A stretch of 64,000 nt of DNA from an uncultured Hormoscilla sp. (GTDB lineage Bacteria > Cyanobacteriota > Cyanobacteriia > Cyanobacteriales > Desertifilaceae), in assembly GCA_963921275.4 (NCBI GenBank), contig OZ001293.3, positions 5,408,001 to 5,472,000 of the forward strand, written 5' to 3'. Positions 15,715-58,944 of the stretch are shown piece after piece. Below the pieces are notes generated by a model, which had not been told where the DNA came from, did no database searches, and worked only from the letters and a program-made list of their open reading frames with translations. Every line of letters begins with the position of its first letter. The stretch's first letter is position 1. Position numbers and translations under genes: made by a program.

Positions 15715-15783
15715 ATCTCAAGCACTTTGGAAAGATAAGTAGCCACAAAAGCAAAAATCATGCTAAGATACTTTGCAGGTTCT

Positions 15784-15959
15784 ACTGCGGTGTTGGTGAC
15801 TGCCAATAAAGTTTTATGATCTATGCCTTGAGATAAACGGGAACCTGTGTAGTTCTAGCGGCAGTAGGCCGGGCCAGTAACCGGAAACGAAAGCTATCGA
15901 AACCTAGGTACCCACCTGGTGCAACCAGGTCAAAAACTGAGGTAAGACGGCACTGCGGT
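15784..15959 (+). ncRNA. ssrS: 6S RNA
   Basis: Complementary ends ACTGCGGTGTTG / CGGCACTGCGGT, internal hairpin ACCTGGT-GCA-ACCAGGT, location downstream of purK as in many cyanobacteria, TGcTAAGAT extended -10 upstream. Confidence 0.85.
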
Positions 15960-16165
15960 GAACCTCCTGTGTCTCCCATGTATGTGCTTTTAGCGCTCCC
16001 GGGAGACACAGGGCCCATTGGCCGTTGTATGCATTACAGGGGTATTGTGGTCTCGATCGGCTTATGACCAATTATTAAATAAATCATTTAATGGCTAATT
16101 GTCCTGTTCGTGAAAAAATAAGCAGATGTTGTTTTGTAACAGGCAGTTGCCCCTAAACCGAAGTT

Positions 16166-18508: not shown

Positions 18509-19379
18509 GTGCGATTCGTTCTAGCCTAACGTGGTCAAACACGGAACGCTAGCCCGGTTTCATTAGCCAGGAACTCTGACCGCATGGGGGTTAAATTCCC
18601 CTCCCCCCAGGTACGGGGGTGACACCGGTCCTCGGTGCTACGAAGCGACATCATCGTGGTGCTAAGCGAGGACTCAAATGTAGGATAACTGGCAGCCTAA
18701 GCCGGTGACGCCGCTAGGAAAGATATCCAAGGTTAGAGCAGGCAAACATGTGCAAGCCTCGTTATAAGGAACCAGCGAAATAAGGCTATATGCGCTGGCC
18801 TAAAAAGGAAATGGTAGCTAGTATTAGTTTTAGACTCTGGCTAATATAGTACTCAAATAGCTCCCGGGGTATAGTGTGGACCTAAAGGTATCGCGAAATG
18901 TTGTTAGGGAACGAAGTAACCTCTCGTGTGCTGTCCATCAGGACAAGTTAGATGTTAAGCGCAAGCCACGGGGGGAGGGATGGCCCAAGAAGCGAATGCC
19001 CGGGGTAATTCCTGGGATAACATCTACAGTAATGTAGATGATGCTGGGTAGCCAGCGCTGACGTGGGTCGGTGATACTAGGAAGCTGCTGGAATGAGTAA
19101 TCCTAAAAAGCCACGGAACTAATCCGAAACGCAAGTGGAGGATAAGGTATGGATAACTGGTAAAACTGACTTGAAAATGGTGATACTAACGGTTATCAGA
19201 ACAACCACTCGCTAAACCAGGAAAGGGAAGAAAAGACAGGCGGCAAGGGCTAACGGAAGTAATTCCTATTAAGTCTACCTATGAAAAGGGCCTAGTACCC
19301 AGTAGCCGGATGCGGTGAAAATCGCAAGTCCGGTTCCTCAAGGGAGGGTCGGGAAGCGATTCCCGGCTCGACCCCATCC
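18509..19379 (+). ncRNA. ORF-less group II intron (IIB/CL-like), copy A
   Basis: 5' GTGCG; domain V AGCCGGATGCGGT-GAAA-ATCGCAAGTCCGGTT (about 19304-19335); domain VI hairpin with bulged A (CGACCCCAT); short domain IV with no ORF; interrupts a REP. Confidence 0.93.
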
Positions 19380-19504
19380 AGCTACACGAACAAAGCCCGC
19401 CTGCGCGGGCTAGATTACTTGCATCATCGATGCTCTCCGGTCGCTTCGGGTGTGGTCAAAACCCGTCGATCTAACATGGGCCTTCCCAGTCGTCGGATCC
19501 CCCT

Positions 19505-28115: not shown

Positions 28116-29225
28116 ATGACAGAAAACACCAACAACTCTAATGGGAAGCATAATGATACTCAAACTGAAACTAGCGGAGAAAGTCTAACCAAGATTATCC
28201 GCAATCTCAACTCAGATAATAAAGAGGTTCGTAGCTAGGCTTTATGGAAGCTGTTCGCTCTCTGTTGGCATAAGAAAAAACAGTTGGATCGGGACGCATT
28301 TTTCCTGGTCCAATTTCTAGTTGAATGCCTGCAAAAGGAGTCGGAACCAGAAATATTAGACCTAATTCTCTTCCATCTGGCACACTTGGCGACGGTATCT
28401 CCTTGTCGTCCCACGCAGGTTGCTTTAGAATGGGTGCTTGCCACTTATGATGAAGTTTACGAAGGGATTGATATTTACCTGGATTTGCTCGCACACCCCT
28501 CGCCCCAAGTCAGAATTGCGGCAGCATACACCCTGTCCTGCTGCAAGTCAGAGGTCGCCACCAGAATCTGTAGCCAATTGTCTAGACGGTTTGACGGCGA
28601 ACCGGATGTGATGGTAAGATCGACAATCCTGTTGTGTCTGGCATTTCTCAACGAGAAAATCTCTGTGAGTCCTGGGTTATTTGAGTCTATATTGAACTCA
28701 AAGGAAGAAGAAATTGTGAAGCTGGCGGGGGTCTGCGCCCTTGCCTATGTGACCGGGGAAAACATGCCGGACTACGCCTGTGACTTACTCGTGCATCTGT
28801 GGGACAAACCTCAATGGTTGAAAAGACTGGCTAATCACTACGATCGGAGAATGGTAAAAATTCATCGCCAGAGACTCGTGGACTTTATCAGACCTCTCGG
28901 TCATCGGCACGCTGGCCAGACGATCCCGGTTCTCTGGAAAGGGATACAATACTACCAATTTGAGGCGATCGATCTCGCTTTTGCAGAAATAGCTTTCGGC
29001 ATTGAAAAACTCCCAGAGGGAATCAGGATTCATGACTTGACAGATAACCAGCAACTGGTTTTAAGGTTAATTGCAGATACCACCAAAACCGGACAAGAAC
29101 CAATTTATAGGAAACGAACATTAAAGTTTATCGGCATTGGTCAAGTTTCTCCCAGTGATGGGTACTATGCGCGGAAAAAGCTCTTGAGCTTTCTCAATGG
29201 TGCGAAAGTGAAATATGATAAATAG
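28116..29225 (+). pseudogene. HEAT-repeat protein, paralog 1, N-terminus frameshifted
   Basis: YLDLLAHPSPQVRIAAAYTL, EPDVMVRSTILLCL; colinear with paralog 2. Confidence 0.65.
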
Positions 29226-29310
29226 GAATGAGTCCGAATGGGGAGGCGATCTTGGCATCAAGAAACCCGGGTTTCTAGGCGACCGGTGAAGAGGCAGGAG
29301 GAAATAGACT

Positions 29311-30210
29311 ATGAGCGATCGTCGATTAACGGTATCTGTGAAATTTCCCAATAATGGTAAAGGTTGGTGTTTTTTACTGGCGGATATAGTCAATGATATC
29401 CGCCATCTCGCCTCAGACAATAAAAAGGTTAGGGAGAAGGCTTTATGGGATCTGTTTGAGCTATGCTGGCATCAGGGAACTTTGTATTGGCAAGCAGCTT
29501 TCGTCGCACCATTTCTAATTGAACGCCTCCCACATGAGTCAGAACCAGAGCTATTGGAGATAATTCTGTGGATTTTTGCACCGCTGGCGTGTCGGGAGGC
29601 CCTACTGGTAATACGTCTGAGGAACTCTATTGGGCCCGTGCCACTTATGGGCAAGTTTACAGAGAAATCGATGTTTACCTCGATTTGCTGGAACATTCCT
29701 CGTCCGAAGTTAGAATTGCAGCAATATACATGCTTGCATTCTGTAAGCGAGATGCTGCGATGATTGGCGATAAACTCGGTATAAATTTTCGCAACGAACC
29801 AGAAGAAATGGTGAGAGCAACCATTCCGTATTGTCTGGCATTTATCAGCGACAATACGCCTGTAGATACTATGTTTTTTGAGGAAATATTAAACTCAGAT
29901 GATGCCGAGATTGTGAAACTAGCCGCAGGGAACACTCTGGCCTATGTTGCTGGCGAAAATATGCCGGAGTATGCCTTGTCAATCCTCCAGCGTCTGTGGG
30001 AAAATACTAAGTTAGTGGATAGACTCGCTAAGCATTCCGATCCTATTGAAACAATTCATGACAAGAGATTACTAGACTTTTTGAAGCCTCTTAACGATCG
30101 GCAAATTGCTAAGATTATCCCCAGGATCTGGCAAGAATGGGGTGAATACTACCGCGATTTGGATGCGATCGAACTAGCTTTCGGAGACCTATTTAGGAAA
30201 AAGAAAAAAG
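29311..30210 (+). pseudogene. HEAT-repeat protein, paralog 2, frameshifted near 29570 with displaced C-terminus
   Basis: WHQGTLY, YLDLLEHSSSEVRIAAIYML; the matching C-terminal segment is at 31425-31648. Confidence 0.7.
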
Positions 30211-37839: not shown

Positions 37840-38326
37840 ATGAGCAAAACGGTTTCAGGCGTTAGCGTCAAAGCCATCAATAGGGAGGAAAAGCAAAAAG
37901 CAGTTGGGAGAGTACAAGGTTCTCCTGATCGTGAATTTGGCTTCCTACTGCGGTTACACTCCTCAATACAAAGGACTAGAAGCTTTGAACCAGAAGTATG
38001 CCGATGGGGGTTTGCGGGTCCTGGGGTTCCCCTGCAACGACTATGGCGATCGGGAACCAAAAAGCAATCCCGAAATTCTGGAGTTTGCTACTAAAAACTA
38101 TGGCGTCACCTTTGAACTGTTTGACAAGGTGCATGCAAAAGGTTCCGAACAGCATCCGCTTTATGCTATACTGACCAAAGCTGTAGAACCAACGGTCGAT
38201 GTAGCAGAGAATTTTGAGAAGCTTTTGGTGAGTAAACAAGGTGAAGTCGTGGCGCGATTTAACAGCGGTGCCAGTCCCGACTCCTCAGAATTGATTGCCG
38301 CGATAGAGCAAGAGTTTGCTTCATAG
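37840..38326 (+). pseudogene. Glutathione peroxidase family, frameshifted by a 7-bp duplication near 37890
   Basis: VNLASYCGYTPQY, LGFPCNDYG, NFEKLLV; AAAAGCA duplicated. Confidence 0.85.
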
Positions 38327-38339
38327 TCTGACATAATAA

Positions 38340-38431
38340 TAGACCTCTTGCAAAAGTAGATTTAGGCTACGCAATAGCAATACTTTCAGCATCCCGTTTG
38401 GATCCATTTTGGCATTTATGCAAGAGGTCTA
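38340..38431. mobile_element. MITE
   Basis: TIRs TAGACCTCTTGCA / TGCAAGAGGTCTA about 90 bp apart. Confidence 0.8.
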
Positions 38432-38439
38432 CTATATAT

Positions 38440-39370
38440 AACTCAAGTTGCTACCTATTAAAAAAAAATGTATTACCCACTTAGAGATTTCCGATATTTG
38501 TGTTTTTTGGTAGTCACAGAAATATATTATTTTTATGCTATCAGTAGCCATCCCTGTTTATAGGTTATAATGTACTAAAATAACAGTTGATTGCGGTAGA
38601 TTATGGAAAATATGATTATAACAATTTTTGTTCTTGGCGATGAACTGCTAAAAGCACTCAATATCAAAGAAGATCCACAAGTAAAAATGAATAATGCGGA
38701 GGTGATGACAGTAGGATTAGTTGCTGCTTATTTTTGGGAGGGCGCTCGTCAATTTATGGCAGAACATAACTAGATCAAAAATCTGTCAAGTAAAAGTAGG
38801 TTTAATCGTCGAAAACATAAGATTGATGAAACAATTGTATGGGAGTTTATTTCAAGCAATGGCTCAATCATTCGCTAAATCCGGGTCAAGAATATATTAT
38901 CGATAGTTTCCCTGTGCCAGGATGTGACAACACGATCGATGTAAAATTTATACAGAAGAAGAATATAGAGGATATATCGCCAGCAAAAAACGTTATTTTT
39001 ATTGAGAGTTCATATGTTAGTCAACAAAACTGGTAAACCAATAGAATTTTATTTTGCTCCTGGTAGTTGTAATGATGCGAAAATTATCCAATTGCTTTGA
39101 TTTGCCATCAAAAGTTTATGGAGACAAAATTTATAACAATTATCAAGATTTACTAAAAGAGTCAATGAATATAATGTTCAAACATTTGCGTAAAAAGAAC
39201 GCGGGTTCAATATGTACAGAACGTAACTAGAAAACAAGTAGGAACATGCTTTAGTCGAATAACTAATTTGTTTCCTAAGTCCTGCTGTTACATCCAAAGG
39301 GTTCGAGTTAAAATTAATTCTCTTTATCATAGCTTTTTGTGTTCAATTTTTATAGGTCGCAACTTAAGTT
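38440..39370 (+). mobile_element. Decayed IS982-family element
   Basis: IRs AACTCAAGTTGCTACCTAT / ATAGGTCGCAACTTAAGTT with TATATA flanks; remnants KMNNAEVMTVGLVAAYF, IIDSFPVPGCDN. Confidence 0.8.
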
Positions 39371-39655
39371 ATATATATTAGGGTAGGTGAGCGGCAGGCG
39401 GAGTTTGCAGCCTGGTAACCCACCCACTGGAAAGCCCTAGTGTATGGGGTGGCGCTTGGCATGGAACATTCGGGAAGTCTAGAGGTCTAATGTAAATAGA
39501 CAAGTCCCAGGGGCCGCCGAGGGGTCAAACCCAAAGGCCTTGGGAGCATCTCACTTTTGCATTTTTGCAACAATTATCGCTAATGGCTAATTGCTAATGG
39601 CTAATGGAGAATTGTTTGATTTCACCCACTTTGCCTGCCCAACCTTTCGGAGTCT

Positions 39656-40526
39656 GTGCGATTCGTTCTAGCCTAACGTGGTCAAACACGGAACGCTAGC
39701 CCGGTTTCATTAGCCGGGAACTCTGACCGCATGGGGGTTAAATTCCTCTCCCCCCAGGTACGGGGGTGACACCGGTCCTCGGTGCTACGAAGCGACATCA
39801 TCGTGGTGCTAAGCGAGGACTCAAATGTAGGATAACTGGCAGCCTAAGCCGGTGACGCCGCTAGGAAAGATATCCAAGGTTAGAGCAGGCAAACATGTGC
39901 AAGCCTCGTTATAAGGAACCAGCGAAATAAGGCTATATGCGCTGGCCTAAAAAGGAAATGGTAGCTAGTATTAGTTTTAGACTCTGGCTAATATAGTACT
40001 CAAATAGCTCCCGGGGTATAGTGTGGACCTAAAGGTATCGCGAAATGTTGTTAGGGAACGAAGTAACCTCTCGTGTGCTGTCCATCAGGACAAGTTAGAT
40101 GTTAAGCGCAAGCCACGGGGGGAGGGATGGCCCAAGAAGCGAATGCCCGGGGTAATTCCTGGGATAACATCTACAGTAATGTAGATGATGCTGGGTAGCC
40201 AGCGCTGACGTGGGTCGGTGATACTAGGAAGCTGCTGGAATGAGTAATCCTAAAAAGCCACGGAACTAATCCGAAACGCAAGTGGAGGATAAGGTATGGA
40301 TAACTGGTAAAACTGACTTGAAAATGGTGATACTAACGGTTATCAGAACAACCACTCGCTAAACCAGGAAAGGGAAGAAAAGACAGGCGGCAAGGGCTAA
40401 CGGAAGTAATTCCTATTAAGTCTACCTATGAAAAGGGCCTAGTACCCAGTAGCCGGATGCGGTGAAAATCGCAAGTCCGGTTCCGAAAGGGAGGGTCGGG
40501 AAGCGATTCCCGGCTCGACCCCATCC
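39656..40526 (+). ncRNA. ORF-less group II intron, copy B1
   Basis: GTGCG...CGACCCCATCC, near-identical to copy A; preceded by GAGTCT, complementary to the putative EBS1 AGACTC. Confidence 0.93.
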
Positions 40527-41396
40527 GTGCGATTCGTTCTAGCCTAACGTGGTCAAACACGGAACGCTAGCCCGGTTTCATTAGCCGGGAACTCTGACCG
40601 CATGGGGGTTAAATTCCCCTCCCCCCAGGTACGGGGGTGACACCGGTCCTCGGTGCTACGAAGCGACATCATCGTGGTGCTAAGCGAGGACTCAAATGTA
40701 GGATAACTGGCAGCCTAAGCCGGTGACGCCGCTAGGAAAGATATCCAAGGTTAGAGCAGGCAAACATGTGCAAGCCTCGTTATAAGGAACCAGCGAAATA
40801 AGGCTATATGCGCTGGCCTAAAAAGGAAATGGTAGCTAGTATTAGTTTTAGACTCTGGCTAATATAGTACTCAAATAGCTCCCGGGGTATAGTGTGGACC
40901 TAAAGGTATCGCGAAATGTTGTTAGGGAACGAAGTAACCTCTCGTGTGCTGTCCATCAGGACAAGTTAGATGTTAAGCGCAAGCCACGGGGGGAGGGATG
41001 GCCCAAGAAGCGAATGCCCGGGGTAATTCCTGGGATAACATCTACAGTAATGTAGATGATGCTGGGTAGCCAGCGCTGACGTGGGTCAGTGATACTAGGA
41101 AGCTGCTGGAATGAGTAATCCTAAAAAGCCACGGAACTAATCCGAAACGCAAGTGGAGGATAAGGTATGGATAACTGGTAAAACTGACTTGAAAATGGTG
41201 ATACTAACGGTTATCAGAACAACCACTCGCTAAACCAGGAAAGGGAAGAAAAGACAGGCGGCAAGGGCTAACGGAAGTAATTCCTATTAAGTCTACCTAT
41301 GAAAAGGGCCTAGTACCCAGTAGCCGGATGCGGTGAAAATCGCAAGTCCGGTTCCTCAAGGGAGGTCGGGAAGCGATTCCCGGCTCGACCCCATCC
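40527..41396 (+). ncRNA. ORF-less group II intron, copy B2
   Basis: Directly abuts B1 (CCCCATCC|GTGCG); one G missing in domain VI. Confidence 0.93.
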
Positions 41397-42268
41397 GTGC
41401 GATTCGTTCTAGCCTAACGTGGTCAAACACGGAACGCTAGCCCGGTTTCATTAGCCGGGAACTCTGACCGCATGGGGGTTAAATTCCCCTCCCCCCAGGT
41501 ACGGGGGTGACACCGGTCCTCGGTGCTACGAAGCGACATCATCGTGGTGCTAAGCGAGGACTCAAATGTAGGATAACTGGCAGCCTAAGCCGGTGACGCC
41601 GCTAGGAAAGATATCCAAGGTTAGAGCAGGCAAACATGTGCAAGCCTCGTTATAAGGAACCAGCGAAATAAGGCTATATGCGCTGGCCTAAAAAGGAAAT
41701 GGTAGCTAGTATTAGTTTTAGACTCTGGCTAATATAGTACTCAAATAGCTCCCGGGGTATAGTGTGGACCCTCAAGGTATCGCGAAATGTTGTTAGGGAA
41801 CGAAGTAACCTCTCGTGTGCTGTCCATCAGGACAAGTTAGATGTTAAGCGCAAGCCACGGGGGGAGGGATGGCCCAAGAAGCGAATGCCCGGGGTAATTC
41901 CTGGGATAACATCTACAGTAATGTAGATGATGCTGGGTAGCCAGCGCTGACGTGGGTCGGTGATACTAGGAAGCTGCTGGAATGAGTAATCCTAAAAAGC
42001 CACGGAACTAATCCGAAACGCAAGTGGAGGATAAGGTATGGATAACTGGTAAAACTGACTTGAAAATGGTGATACTAACGGTTATCAGAACAACCACTCG
42101 CTAAACCAGGAAAGGGAAGAAAAGACAGGCGGCAAGGGCTAACGGAAGTAATTCCTATTAAGTCTACCTATGAAAAGGGCCTAGTACCCAGTAGCCGGAT
42201 GCGGTGAAAATCGCAAGTCCGGTTCCTCAAGGGAGGGTCGGGAAGCGATTCCCGGCTCGACCCCATCC
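41397..42268 (+). ncRNA. ORF-less group II intron, copy B3
   Basis: Directly abuts B2; private variant GGACCCTCAAGG. Confidence 0.93.
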
Positions 42269-42486
42269 ATTTACAAATATGAGATGCACCCAAGGCTTTT
42301 AGCTAAAGTCTGTTTTCAACCGACTCAAAAATTTTCTCTGTTAAACGAGATACGAGCGTTCGGGTAAACAAATCATGACGGAACAAATGCGAGATGTCAA
42401 TTAGAAGAGACTCGCTATAGCAATTAGCAATAGCGCTACGCGCACTACATAAAAGCAATTAGCAATTCACAATTCACAATTCACAA

Positions 42487-43305
42487 ATGAAGAACATTGC
42501 AATAATTGGGTGTGGTTACGTAGGGACAGAAGTGGCCCGCTATTGGCATCAGTTAGGATATGTGCTGACTGTAACCACGACGACACCCGATCGGGTGGCA
42601 GAATTAGAAGCAGTAGCCCAAGGAGTGGTAATTGTCAAAGGAAATGATGCGATCGGGCTGCGATCGGTGTTAGAAAAGCAGGATACAGTGGTGGTGACGG
42701 TGGGTGCTGCTAATCGCCAAATGTATGCAGAAGCGTACCTAGAAACGGCCCAAACTCTCGTATCTGTGCTGAGGGAAGTTCCCAGGGTCAGACAAGTTAT
42801 TTATACGGGAAGTTATGCGGTTTACGGGGACAAAGATGGGGTGTGGGTAGATGAATCATCCCCCGTCGATCCTGCTAACCCAAATGTACAGATTCTCTGC
42901 GATACGGAGGAGGTGTTACTGTCAGCAGCAAGGGAAAACCTGCGGGTTTGTATTCTCCGCCTGGGGGGAATTTACGGTCCCGGACGGGAAATTATCAAGA
43001 TATTTCGTCGCGCTGCTGGTACGACTCGTCCTGGAAAGGGCACAGAGGCAACAAATTGGATTCATTTGGATGATATTGTGGGGGCGATCGCCTTTGCCGA
43101 CGATCAGCAATTGGAAGGCATATACAACTTAGTGGATGACGAACATTTGACCAATAGAGAATTTCTGGACAGGGTATTTGCCAAGCATAGCTTACCGAAT
43201 GTTACTTGGGATGCCAGGAGTAAGCGATCGTATAATGCCTGGGTATCGAATCAGAAGATCAAAGCAGCGGGTTATCAGCTAATTCATCCTCAAAGGATGG
43301 TTTAA
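42487..43305 (+). CDS. NAD-dependent epimerase / atypical SDR (YeeZ-like)
   Basis: IAIIGCGYVG, VYGD, LRLGGIYGPGR, NWIHLDDI. Confidence 0.9.
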   Translation: MKNIAIIGCGYVGTEVARYWHQLGYVLTVTTTTPDRVAELEAVAQGVVIVKGNDAIGLRSVLEKQDTVVVTVGAANRQMYAEAYLETAQTLVSVLREVPRVRQVIYTGSYAVYGDKDGVWVDESSPVDPANPNVQILCDTEEVLLSAARENLRVCILRLGGIYGPGREIIKIFRRAAGTTRPGKGTEATNWIHLDDIVGAIAFADDQQLEGIYNLVDDEHLTNREFLDRVFAKHSLPNVTWDARSKRSYNAWVSNQKIKAAGYQLIHPQRMV

Positions 43306-43466
43306 TGGTATTGTAGAATATGTCAGAATTGAGGAGAGAACCATTAGACCAACTAACGACCAAGCACAATCCCAATACTTCGTAGGCTGACTGCCTGACA
43401 CAAGTGGCTCAAAGCTCGCAATTACGTCGAAAGCGAGAAAAGGGGCAGAGTGCTATGCTTGTGCTA

Positions 43467-46998: not shown

Positions 46999-47530
46999 AG
47001 GTCTATCCTCCGTTACTTAACTTTATCTGTACCATAACTTTTCTCTTCGCTTCTGATTCTACCGGAAAACTTGCATAACGGGACTTTGAGATTTTCTCAG
47101 GCAAAAAACGGCTTCTTAGCTTACCGGGTGTGGGTTTTACGTCGAAGGGTATCAAATGGCAGCAAACCCGCTCCCCTGGGTCGAGGGAGACCAGGGAGAC
47201 CCCACTGTGGCTCTGTGAAAGGGTTTGATGTCATTTTACGCCTATTTTTTCTCAAAGTCCCGATAAAAATGTCTTGACGCCTTTCATTCTGACTATCTGT
47301 GCATTCCCAGATCGGTGCTGTGATCGCCAACCGCTACCACTCCCTCACCCTAAAGGGTGAGGCTAAACAAACAAAGCCCGCCTGCGCGGGCTAGATTACA
47401 TTAAAGAGATAGTCCCGATCGGGTCAAACATGGGTGGCCTGAAAACTATGCTGGGAGGCAGGAGATCGCCTATCGCCTTGAGCGAACGCCACCGATATTT
47501 TAACCTCCCCAGTGAGTCAGAGCAACTCTC

Positions 47531-58872: not shown

Positions 58873-58944
58873 GCCGGTGTGACTCAGGGGTAGAGTAGCT
58901 GATTTGTAATCAGCCTGTCGCAGGTTCAAATCCTGTCACCGGCT
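58873..58944 (+). tRNA. trnT: tRNA-Thr(UGU)
   Basis: Acceptor stem GCCGGTG/CACCGGC, anticodon arm GCTGA-TTTGTAA-TCAGC, T-loop GGTTCAAATCC; CCA not encoded. Confidence 0.96.

Follow-up and report, generated by a model that had tools for sequence, protein, structure and literature searches.

How do three complete ribozymes come to lie head to tail without a single nucleotide between them, with only the first preceded by a sequence that it can pair with? The question is raised by a 64,000-nucleotide stretch of contig OZ001293.3 from an uncultured Hormoscilla sp. (the window), in which three abutting group IIB introns without an open reading frame (ORF), of 871, 870 and 872 nt in the assembly sequence, form an array (Table 1). 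We consider it probable that ordinary retrohoming brought the three copies, in succession, to one and the same DNA target. An earlier note, made from the sequence alone, had described three complete units joined without spacer, and coordinates and lengths were found as it gave them. Every unit starts with GTGCGA and ends with CCCCATCC, and a search with a group II model, as the note had proposed, matched each of them: the Rfam family Intron_gpII (RF00029) was recognized at 46.4, 44.8 and 44.4 bits in units 1, 2 and 3, above the gathering score of 40, in agreement with an intact domain V in each unit. The reported absence of a reverse transcriptase (RT) ORF held as well: the window gave no RT match, and the unit contains no RT remnant. 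With its period limit of 500, Tandem Repeats Finder did not detect the array. The ribozyme in the array is of group IIB; the copy number of three is an assembly-based figure.

The array belongs to a large family. The source genome (7.03 Mb in seven contigs, hereafter G000) holds 139 full copies of the unit at an identity of at least 98.7%, all on contig C1, 64 on the plus and 75 on the minus strand, with 61 of the 139 identical to the consensus. The exon-binding sites (EBS) and their intron-binding partners (IBS) in the target were assigned from covariation in one representative of each of 33 ORF-less families, aligned against its own flanks. Unit positions 324–329 (EBS1) covary with target positions -1 to -6 (0.52–0.82, weakest at -2), positions 257–261 (EBS2) with -9 to -13 (0.64–0.82), and position 255 (EBS2a) with -14 (0.88), the EBS2a pairing being a feature of IIB1/IIB2 introns (PMC8643678). 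Position 364 (EBS3) covaries with the +1 base in 0.91 of the families (three pair types), and position 470 (gamma) with the last intron base in 0.94 (two pair types). A logo of 136 family sites reads GAGTCT from -6 to -1 and CCTTA from -13 to -9, followed at +1 by A (97), G (23), C (10) or T (6). The earlier note had seen GAGTCT in front of unit 1 only, complementary to AGACTC at 39979–39984 in a stem-loop, and had judged the internal junctions poor in pairing; both points were borne out, as an internal junction scores -16.4 bits with two of six EBS1 pairs, and IBS1 and IBS2 occur only before the 5'-most copy. The array site itself has a pairing score of 11/12, reached by 3 of 145 sites, and ranks second of 145, or second of 131 when left out of the matrix, with four sites genome-wide scoring as high.

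According to the scheme that we favor, unit 3 would have come first, inserting between GAGTCT and A. Later intron particles, derived from other genomic copies, would then have reverse-spliced between GAGTCT and G via a U-G wobble, bringing in unit 2 and finally unit 1, so that each new copy would land in front of the previous one. EBS1, EBS2 and EBS2a all have partners in the target 5' of unit 1, and an insertion leaves this target intact, exchanging only the +1 base for the intron's first G. With EBS3 = U, this G of a resident intron can act as IBS3 through a wobble pair; G is found at +1 in 33 of 240 copies with EBS3 = U (array junctions included). The units also carry different markers. Unit 1 has G830/A831, present in 21 of the 139 copies (20 of them dispersed), and units 2 and 3 carry T/C; likewise, one unit of a dimer at C1:824934-826675 has an A61 that is common to 6 of 139 copies. 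Judged from these markers, the differing haplotypes point to separate donors and against rolling-circle copying. The claim that each unit has private variants holds only in part: the unit 1 pair is shared with dispersed copies, and the one-base deletion in a G-run of unit 2 is absent from short-read contigs of all four runs. Of the two origins that the earlier note had offered, repeated retrohoming into an occupied site gains from EBS3 = U, the tolerance of U-G at +1, the rank of the site and laboratory precedent (see below), and rolling reverse transcription of one circle is disfavored, as the units differ at markers segregating among dispersed copies.

The frequency of such events was compared with a simulation (300 runs of 144 insertions, weighted by the site matrix alone). 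It gave 3.8 tandem junctions (5–95% range 1–7), with 3 observed, and 4.1 self-nested insertions (1–8), with five complete and one collapsed observed; a trimer arose in 32% of the 300 simulations. The array frequency therefore fits a neutral model, and the array seems to be a side effect of a large burst, not a device.

In a pattern census of G000, which gave 366 3' ends of the ORF-less clade and 60 of a second, RT-bearing type, 4 of the 426 3' ends abut an intron start: two in the trimer, one in a dimer and one in another family. The array family accordingly has only three head-to-tail junctions among its 139 full copies (trimer plus one dimer). A genome-wide search for further arrays, suggested by the earlier note, thus yielded the same-family dimer at C1:824934-826675 and an other-family dimer at C1:525459, the 5' unit of which has lost about 280 nt. 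G004, a genome of the same genus, contains two head-to-tail dimers of other families. In one of them, a 903+903 dimer (G004:C32, ~28140-29950, minus strand), the last six bases of the intron match its own IBS1 at five of six positions; both splicing at the internal junction and insertion into it may therefore be possible. G001–G003 contained no arrays with these junction patterns, G001 and G003 being fragmented. The patterns had 11 matches in genome_contigs, ten without a domain V motif (treated as chance) and one real dimer, and none in metagenome_contigs. At the order level, 3 of 401 genomes had matches, only one of them (G590, without an intron match) beyond the genus, and tandem junctions of the RT-bearing type were found in none of the 401.

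Several observations weigh against sequential retrohoming, or at least do not come easily with it. The site matrix was trained on the same sites that it scores, and simulations in which 30% or 10% of the empty sites were usable overshot with 13 or 26 junctions; either the model takes occupied sites for better targets than they are, or recombination removes arrays. The dimer at C1:824934-826675 sits at a site that ranks only 41st of 131. Units 2 and 3 are both of the majority haplotype, such that the markers do not separate their origins, and G002–G004 offered no empty orthologous site. The other-family dimer at C1:525459 has EBS3 = A, which is unable to pair with G and misfits the wobble rule. 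The units of the two G004 dimers are identical (907/907 and 903/903), which would fit a circle or recombination equally well. An RT-bearing member of the array's own ribozyme clade was not found in G000, and none of the eight longest pieces per short-read run bridged an array junction (four of four runs).

A rival explanation is an origin from an intron circle, by rolling reverse transcription or by recombination of a circular DNA copy into a resident copy, or growth through unequal exchange between chromosome copies, in each case with later gene conversion that mixed the markers. Group II intron circles have been published (PMC4770220, PMC4478347; here and below, statements on cited papers refer to the parts of their text that were available), and the array junction is what a perfect circle would yield. 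As the genomic junction equals the circle junction, evidence for circles in G000 from RT-PCR or RNA-seq would be confounded. Rearrangements between direct repeats do occur in this genome, as seen from the collapsed nested copy at C1:3454542 and the internal duplication at C1:6460376-6461611, and four two-copy variants are each found on both haplotypes, for which recombination or recurrent mutation could account. Rolling-circle units would be identical except for RT errors; here, the unit 1 haplotype is lacking in units 2 and 3, and its two-base difference matches a dispersed haplotype. Unequal exchange starting from a dimer of units 1 and 3 would be expected to give unit 2 the G/A pair; only a crossover within the final 40 of the 871 nt would avoid this. 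Recombination would moreover ignore target quality, yet the array occupies the site ranked second of 131. In sum, we regard an origin by circles or exchange as unlikely. A selected device, either an amplifier, with each transcript releasing three intron particles, or a regulator of the gene that follows, appears highly improbable to us: the array lies on the same strand and 218 nt upstream of an ORF for an NAD-dependent epimerase, and no plus-strand terminator-like site was found in 38300–43400, but the array is intergenic, its frequency matches the neutral model, and it is absent from the orthologous region of G001–G004 (sequence read for G002–G004), all four of which lack window positions ~37950 to 42450 there.

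There is also the question of whether the assembly can be trusted, since the array or its copy number might be an artefact amid 139 near-identical repeats, or an allele present in some cells only. We examined four public short-read runs, which come from one study and at most three samples, are possibly the source of the assembly and contain 86–87% of the words. In their contigs, both unique flanks abut an intron end, no piece extends across the array, and intron depth is about 80–230 times flank depth, although depth is not copy number. The lack of a junction bridge among the eight longest pieces could be held in favor of an artefact, as about 55 nt were expected by our estimate. The self-nested junctions, of which the assembly has five to six at the EBS-predicted site, are however missing from the contig joints too; the contigs thus seem to drop short repeat-to-repeat links, and the gap proves nothing. 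Residual homopolymer errors in the assembly also speak for an artefact. The G lacking from the G-run of unit 2 is present in the short-read contigs, and the assembly is without one A near 42326 that is present in all four runs; some indels are probably long-read assembly errors. On the other hand, the units differ by haplotype, a separate contig covers the unit 1 marker at about 17 times flank depth (run X3), the site is a top-ranked target and dimers exist in G004. Taken together, we rate an artefact or partial allele as quite unlikely, and sequential retrohoming, a known mechanism acting at an approximately neutral rate on one of the family's best targets, as the most likely explanation.

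The boundaries of the unit merit a comment. All three units begin with GTGCG, matching the group IIB 5' end GUGYG. The consensus 3' end of group IIB introns is AY, with the branch A 7–8 nt from the end. The array unit ends in ATCC with a bulged A at -9 (40518–40526 in unit 1), and this is a clade-wide variant: four bases follow CCCC (ATCC, GACT, GACC, TAAT), the bulged A is at -9, and the penultimate A is usually lacking. That the mobile unit ends at ATCC is shown by five self-nested copies, inserted at 768/769 with no duplication. As the source of the terminal CC, we considered duplication of the target and addition from the exon by way of a circle; both were discarded, since the self-nested copies restore the intron sequence exactly and EBS3 and gamma covary with an end after ATCC. 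With 139 precise copies, the longer 3' tail is evidently compatible with mobility. The minimum free energy fold of the whole unit has a z-score of -5.2, the domain assignments having been made without this fold. In the fold, the G/A of unit 1 (40485-40486) can pair with the terminal TC (40524-40525) where domain VI begins to fold back. This pairing is not open to the T/C form, which nevertheless dominates with 118 of 139 copies. The paired bases lie at the base of domain VI. The minority G/A haplotype is present in the G004 relative, too.

Table 1. Features of the array and its surroundings; positions are those of the window unless contig C1 of G000 is given
Feature	Position	Strand	Remarks
Unit 1	39656..40526	+	ORF-less group IIB; minority G830/A831 haplotype; presumably last inserted
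Unit 2	40527..41396	+	majority T830/C831 haplotype; one-base deletion near 41363, probably assembly error
Unit 3	41397..42268	+	majority haplotype; presumably first inserted
DNA target	39642..39655	+	IBS2a A (-14); IBS2 CCTTT (-13 to -9), 4/5 pair; IBS1 GAGTCT, 6/6 pair
EBS2a U255 and EBS2 UAAGG (257-261), unit 1	39910..39916	+	covariation with target
EBS1 AGACUC (324-329), unit 1	39979..39984	+	ID3 loop; covariation, target logo, fold
EBS3 U (position 364), unit 1	40019	+	pairs with A at +1, or G by wobble; covariation
Gamma G470, unit 1	40125	+	in J2/3; partner is the terminal C; covariation
Domain IV, unit 1	40222..40441	+	~220 nt; no RT remnant; self-target 768/769 inside; boundaries predicted from fold
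Domains V and VI, unit 1	40451..40526	+	AGC triad, GAAA loop, 2-nt bulge; bulged A nine bases from end; RF00029, fold
IBS3 of original empty site	42269	+	A; Watson-Crick with EBS3 U
Solo copy, same family	18509..19379	+	within short repeated palindromic-type element; Rfam match 19301-19377
Glutathione peroxidase ORF	37904-38326		upstream of array
IS-like repeated stretch	~38430-39380		upstream; suggested by many matches in relatives
NAD-dependent epimerase ORF	starts 218 nt downstream of array	+	same strand as array
6S RNA	15779-15965
tRNA	58873-58944
Isolated CRISPR-DR28 matches	19389-19412, 47370-47393		look like dispersed palindromic repeats, not array
Self-nested copies	C1 1325884, 4743593, 5180205, 6031315, 6411996, 3454542		3454542 collapsed, outer 5' part lost
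Antisense copies in RT genes (examples)	C1 614359, 826675, 1060678, 1148426, 1665452, 3401339, 5180205

The swarm of introns in which the array arose is more striking than the trimer. An iterated profile search of G000 returned 488 domain V matches (duplicates not removed), and the three largest intron families have 145, 73 and 18 members. Published group II maxima in Arthrospira are 101 (PMC8919778) and at least 150 (PMC2853384), figures exceeded by the 426 3' ends of G000. Insertion of the array family into its own domain IV, at 768/769, has given five complete self-twintrons and one collapsed. The many precise recent copies at EBS-matched sites and the lack of an intron-encoded protein in domain IV fit ORF-less introns mobilized in trans (TeI3-type). 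With respect to EBS3, motif matches in G000 have T in 267, A in 39 and G in 7 cases. EBS3 = C, a perfect partner for the first G of the intron itself, was never found (none against 353 non-C matches in G000, G002, G003 and G004, the families not being independent); its absence could reflect selection against self-stacking, a folding constraint or the strong G>A/C>T bias (65 such changes). Two further copies are of unusual structure. At C1 6460376-6461611 (minus strand), the sequence returns from ~835 to position 468, the two places sharing a short word, which makes an internal duplication for which template switching, recombination and assembly error are alternatives. At C1 ~5243282-5244117 (minus strand), another intron is interrupted behind its fifth base by a family-B copy, a joint seen also in a contig of run X2 at about 5 times flank depth.

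Introns without a protein of their own would have to borrow one, and the candidate helpers are the RT-encoding group II introns of G000, which belong to a different ribozyme family. Searching G000 with TIGR04416 gave 123 RT matches, 44 of them above the cut-off, and 21 open RT frames of at least 550 aa with YADD are present. The one RT tested combines RT, maturase and HNH domains, and its closest match is PDB entry 6me0_C (E 2.5e-109), which we take to be the T. elongatus intron RT. Of the 114 RT loci of at least 300 nt, the second 3' type comes after 45, a false match after 2 and no recognized end after the other 67. The related RT-encoding donor that the earlier note had suggested looking for thus did not turn up in a genome-wide search of G000, where all recognizable ends of RT loci are of the other 3' type. 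One RT-bearing ribozyme compared with the array unit has only short blocks in common with it (~70–90%). Many family copies lie antisense inside the RT genes of RT-bearing introns, at two recurring sites, and interrupt what are likely the helper enzymes.

What would become of the array in a sense transcript? Unit 1 alone would have an exon-binding partner. Once it had been removed, the target of unit 2 would be restored, and after that the target of unit 3. Provided that reverse splicing brought the units in, their forward splicing in the order 1, 2, 3 would be that chemistry reversed. Stepwise splicing from three copies to none is plausible as insertion run backwards, going by this model, and needs no selected function. 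A competing route, by analogy with the Clostridium tetani intron C.te.I1, would combine domain I of unit 1 with a downstream domain V/VI and remove the whole block. In C.te.I1, several domain V/VI modules come after a single 5' exon; there, however, only domains V/VI repeat and join coding exons, whereas the array repeats whole ribozymes and is intergenic (PMC4024640, PMC4424553). More tentatively, and with considerable doubt, the array might be a natural, all-ribozyme substrate of recursive splicing that yields three mobile lariats, top sites of this kind might act as amplifiers of the swarm, and the lack of EBS3 = C might be the brake on runaway self-stacking.

A sigma-70 scan around the array gave matches at chance level. 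In G002–G004, the orthologous locus has a glutathione peroxidase gene that is truncated beyond its first part. The array is bracketed by an imperfect inverted repeat of 17 nt (39541-39557 and 42280-42296). Since both arms have matches in a family of short dispersed repeats, a small MITE-like element may contain the target.

The earlier note had not recognized abutting tandem arrays as a known pattern, but there are two introns for which tandem insertion has been published. With EcKTE56.groEL, a IIB1 intron of E. coli, Gomes et al. (2025) obtained tandem copies in 22.4% of positive colonies for the ORF-deleted versus 4.2% for the full-length form, explained by an EBS3(U)-G pairing (PMC12584367). 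As in the array, the copies are head to tail and spacer-free at the 5' exon-intron junction, with the EBS3 U facing the first G, and the greater frequency in the ORF-deleted form is paralleled by the naturally ORF-less state of the array intron. That system involved over-expression from a plasmid, one target and dimers only, whereas the array is natural, has three copies, relaxed targeting and more than one donor haplotype. In retargeted RmInt1, a second copy inserts with the first intron's G as IBS3, via EBS3(C)-G (PMC4075523); the pair is a Watson-Crick one and the intron engineered, and EBS3 = C did not turn up in the array clade (none of 353 motif matches). In Thermosynechococcus elongatus, ORF-less TeI3 introns occur together with TeI4 driver RTs (Mohr et al. 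2010, PMC2882425); like the array family, these are cyanobacterial ORF-less IIB introns with EBS-defined families, a weak 3'-exon preference and nested insertions. T. elongatus has 28 introns (25 intact and 3 fragments) versus 139 in one family and 426 3' ends in G000, and TeI3 keeps ORF remnants and close RT-bearing kin, neither of which was found for the array family. The word 'tandem' is absent from the available text of Mohr et al. Twintrons in Trichodesmium (PMC4649490) and Methanosarcina (PMC4424553) resemble the array in repeated insertion at intron-provided sites, ordered splicing and loss by recombination, but are nested inside another intron, whereas the array copies abut at the splice junction; true self-nested copies are found elsewhere in G000, at position 768. 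The literature that we searched for natural arrays or recursive splicing gave laboratory cases only, and supplements and subscription papers may report more.

The Hormoscilla array would thus be a natural instance of a behavior that the papers available describe from laboratory assays. With its 139 copies, the family allows the tandem rate to be compared with a neutral model, which the rate fits, and the array may offer a substrate on which to test whether abutting ribozymes splice in order, which would be a simple analogue of recursive splicing.

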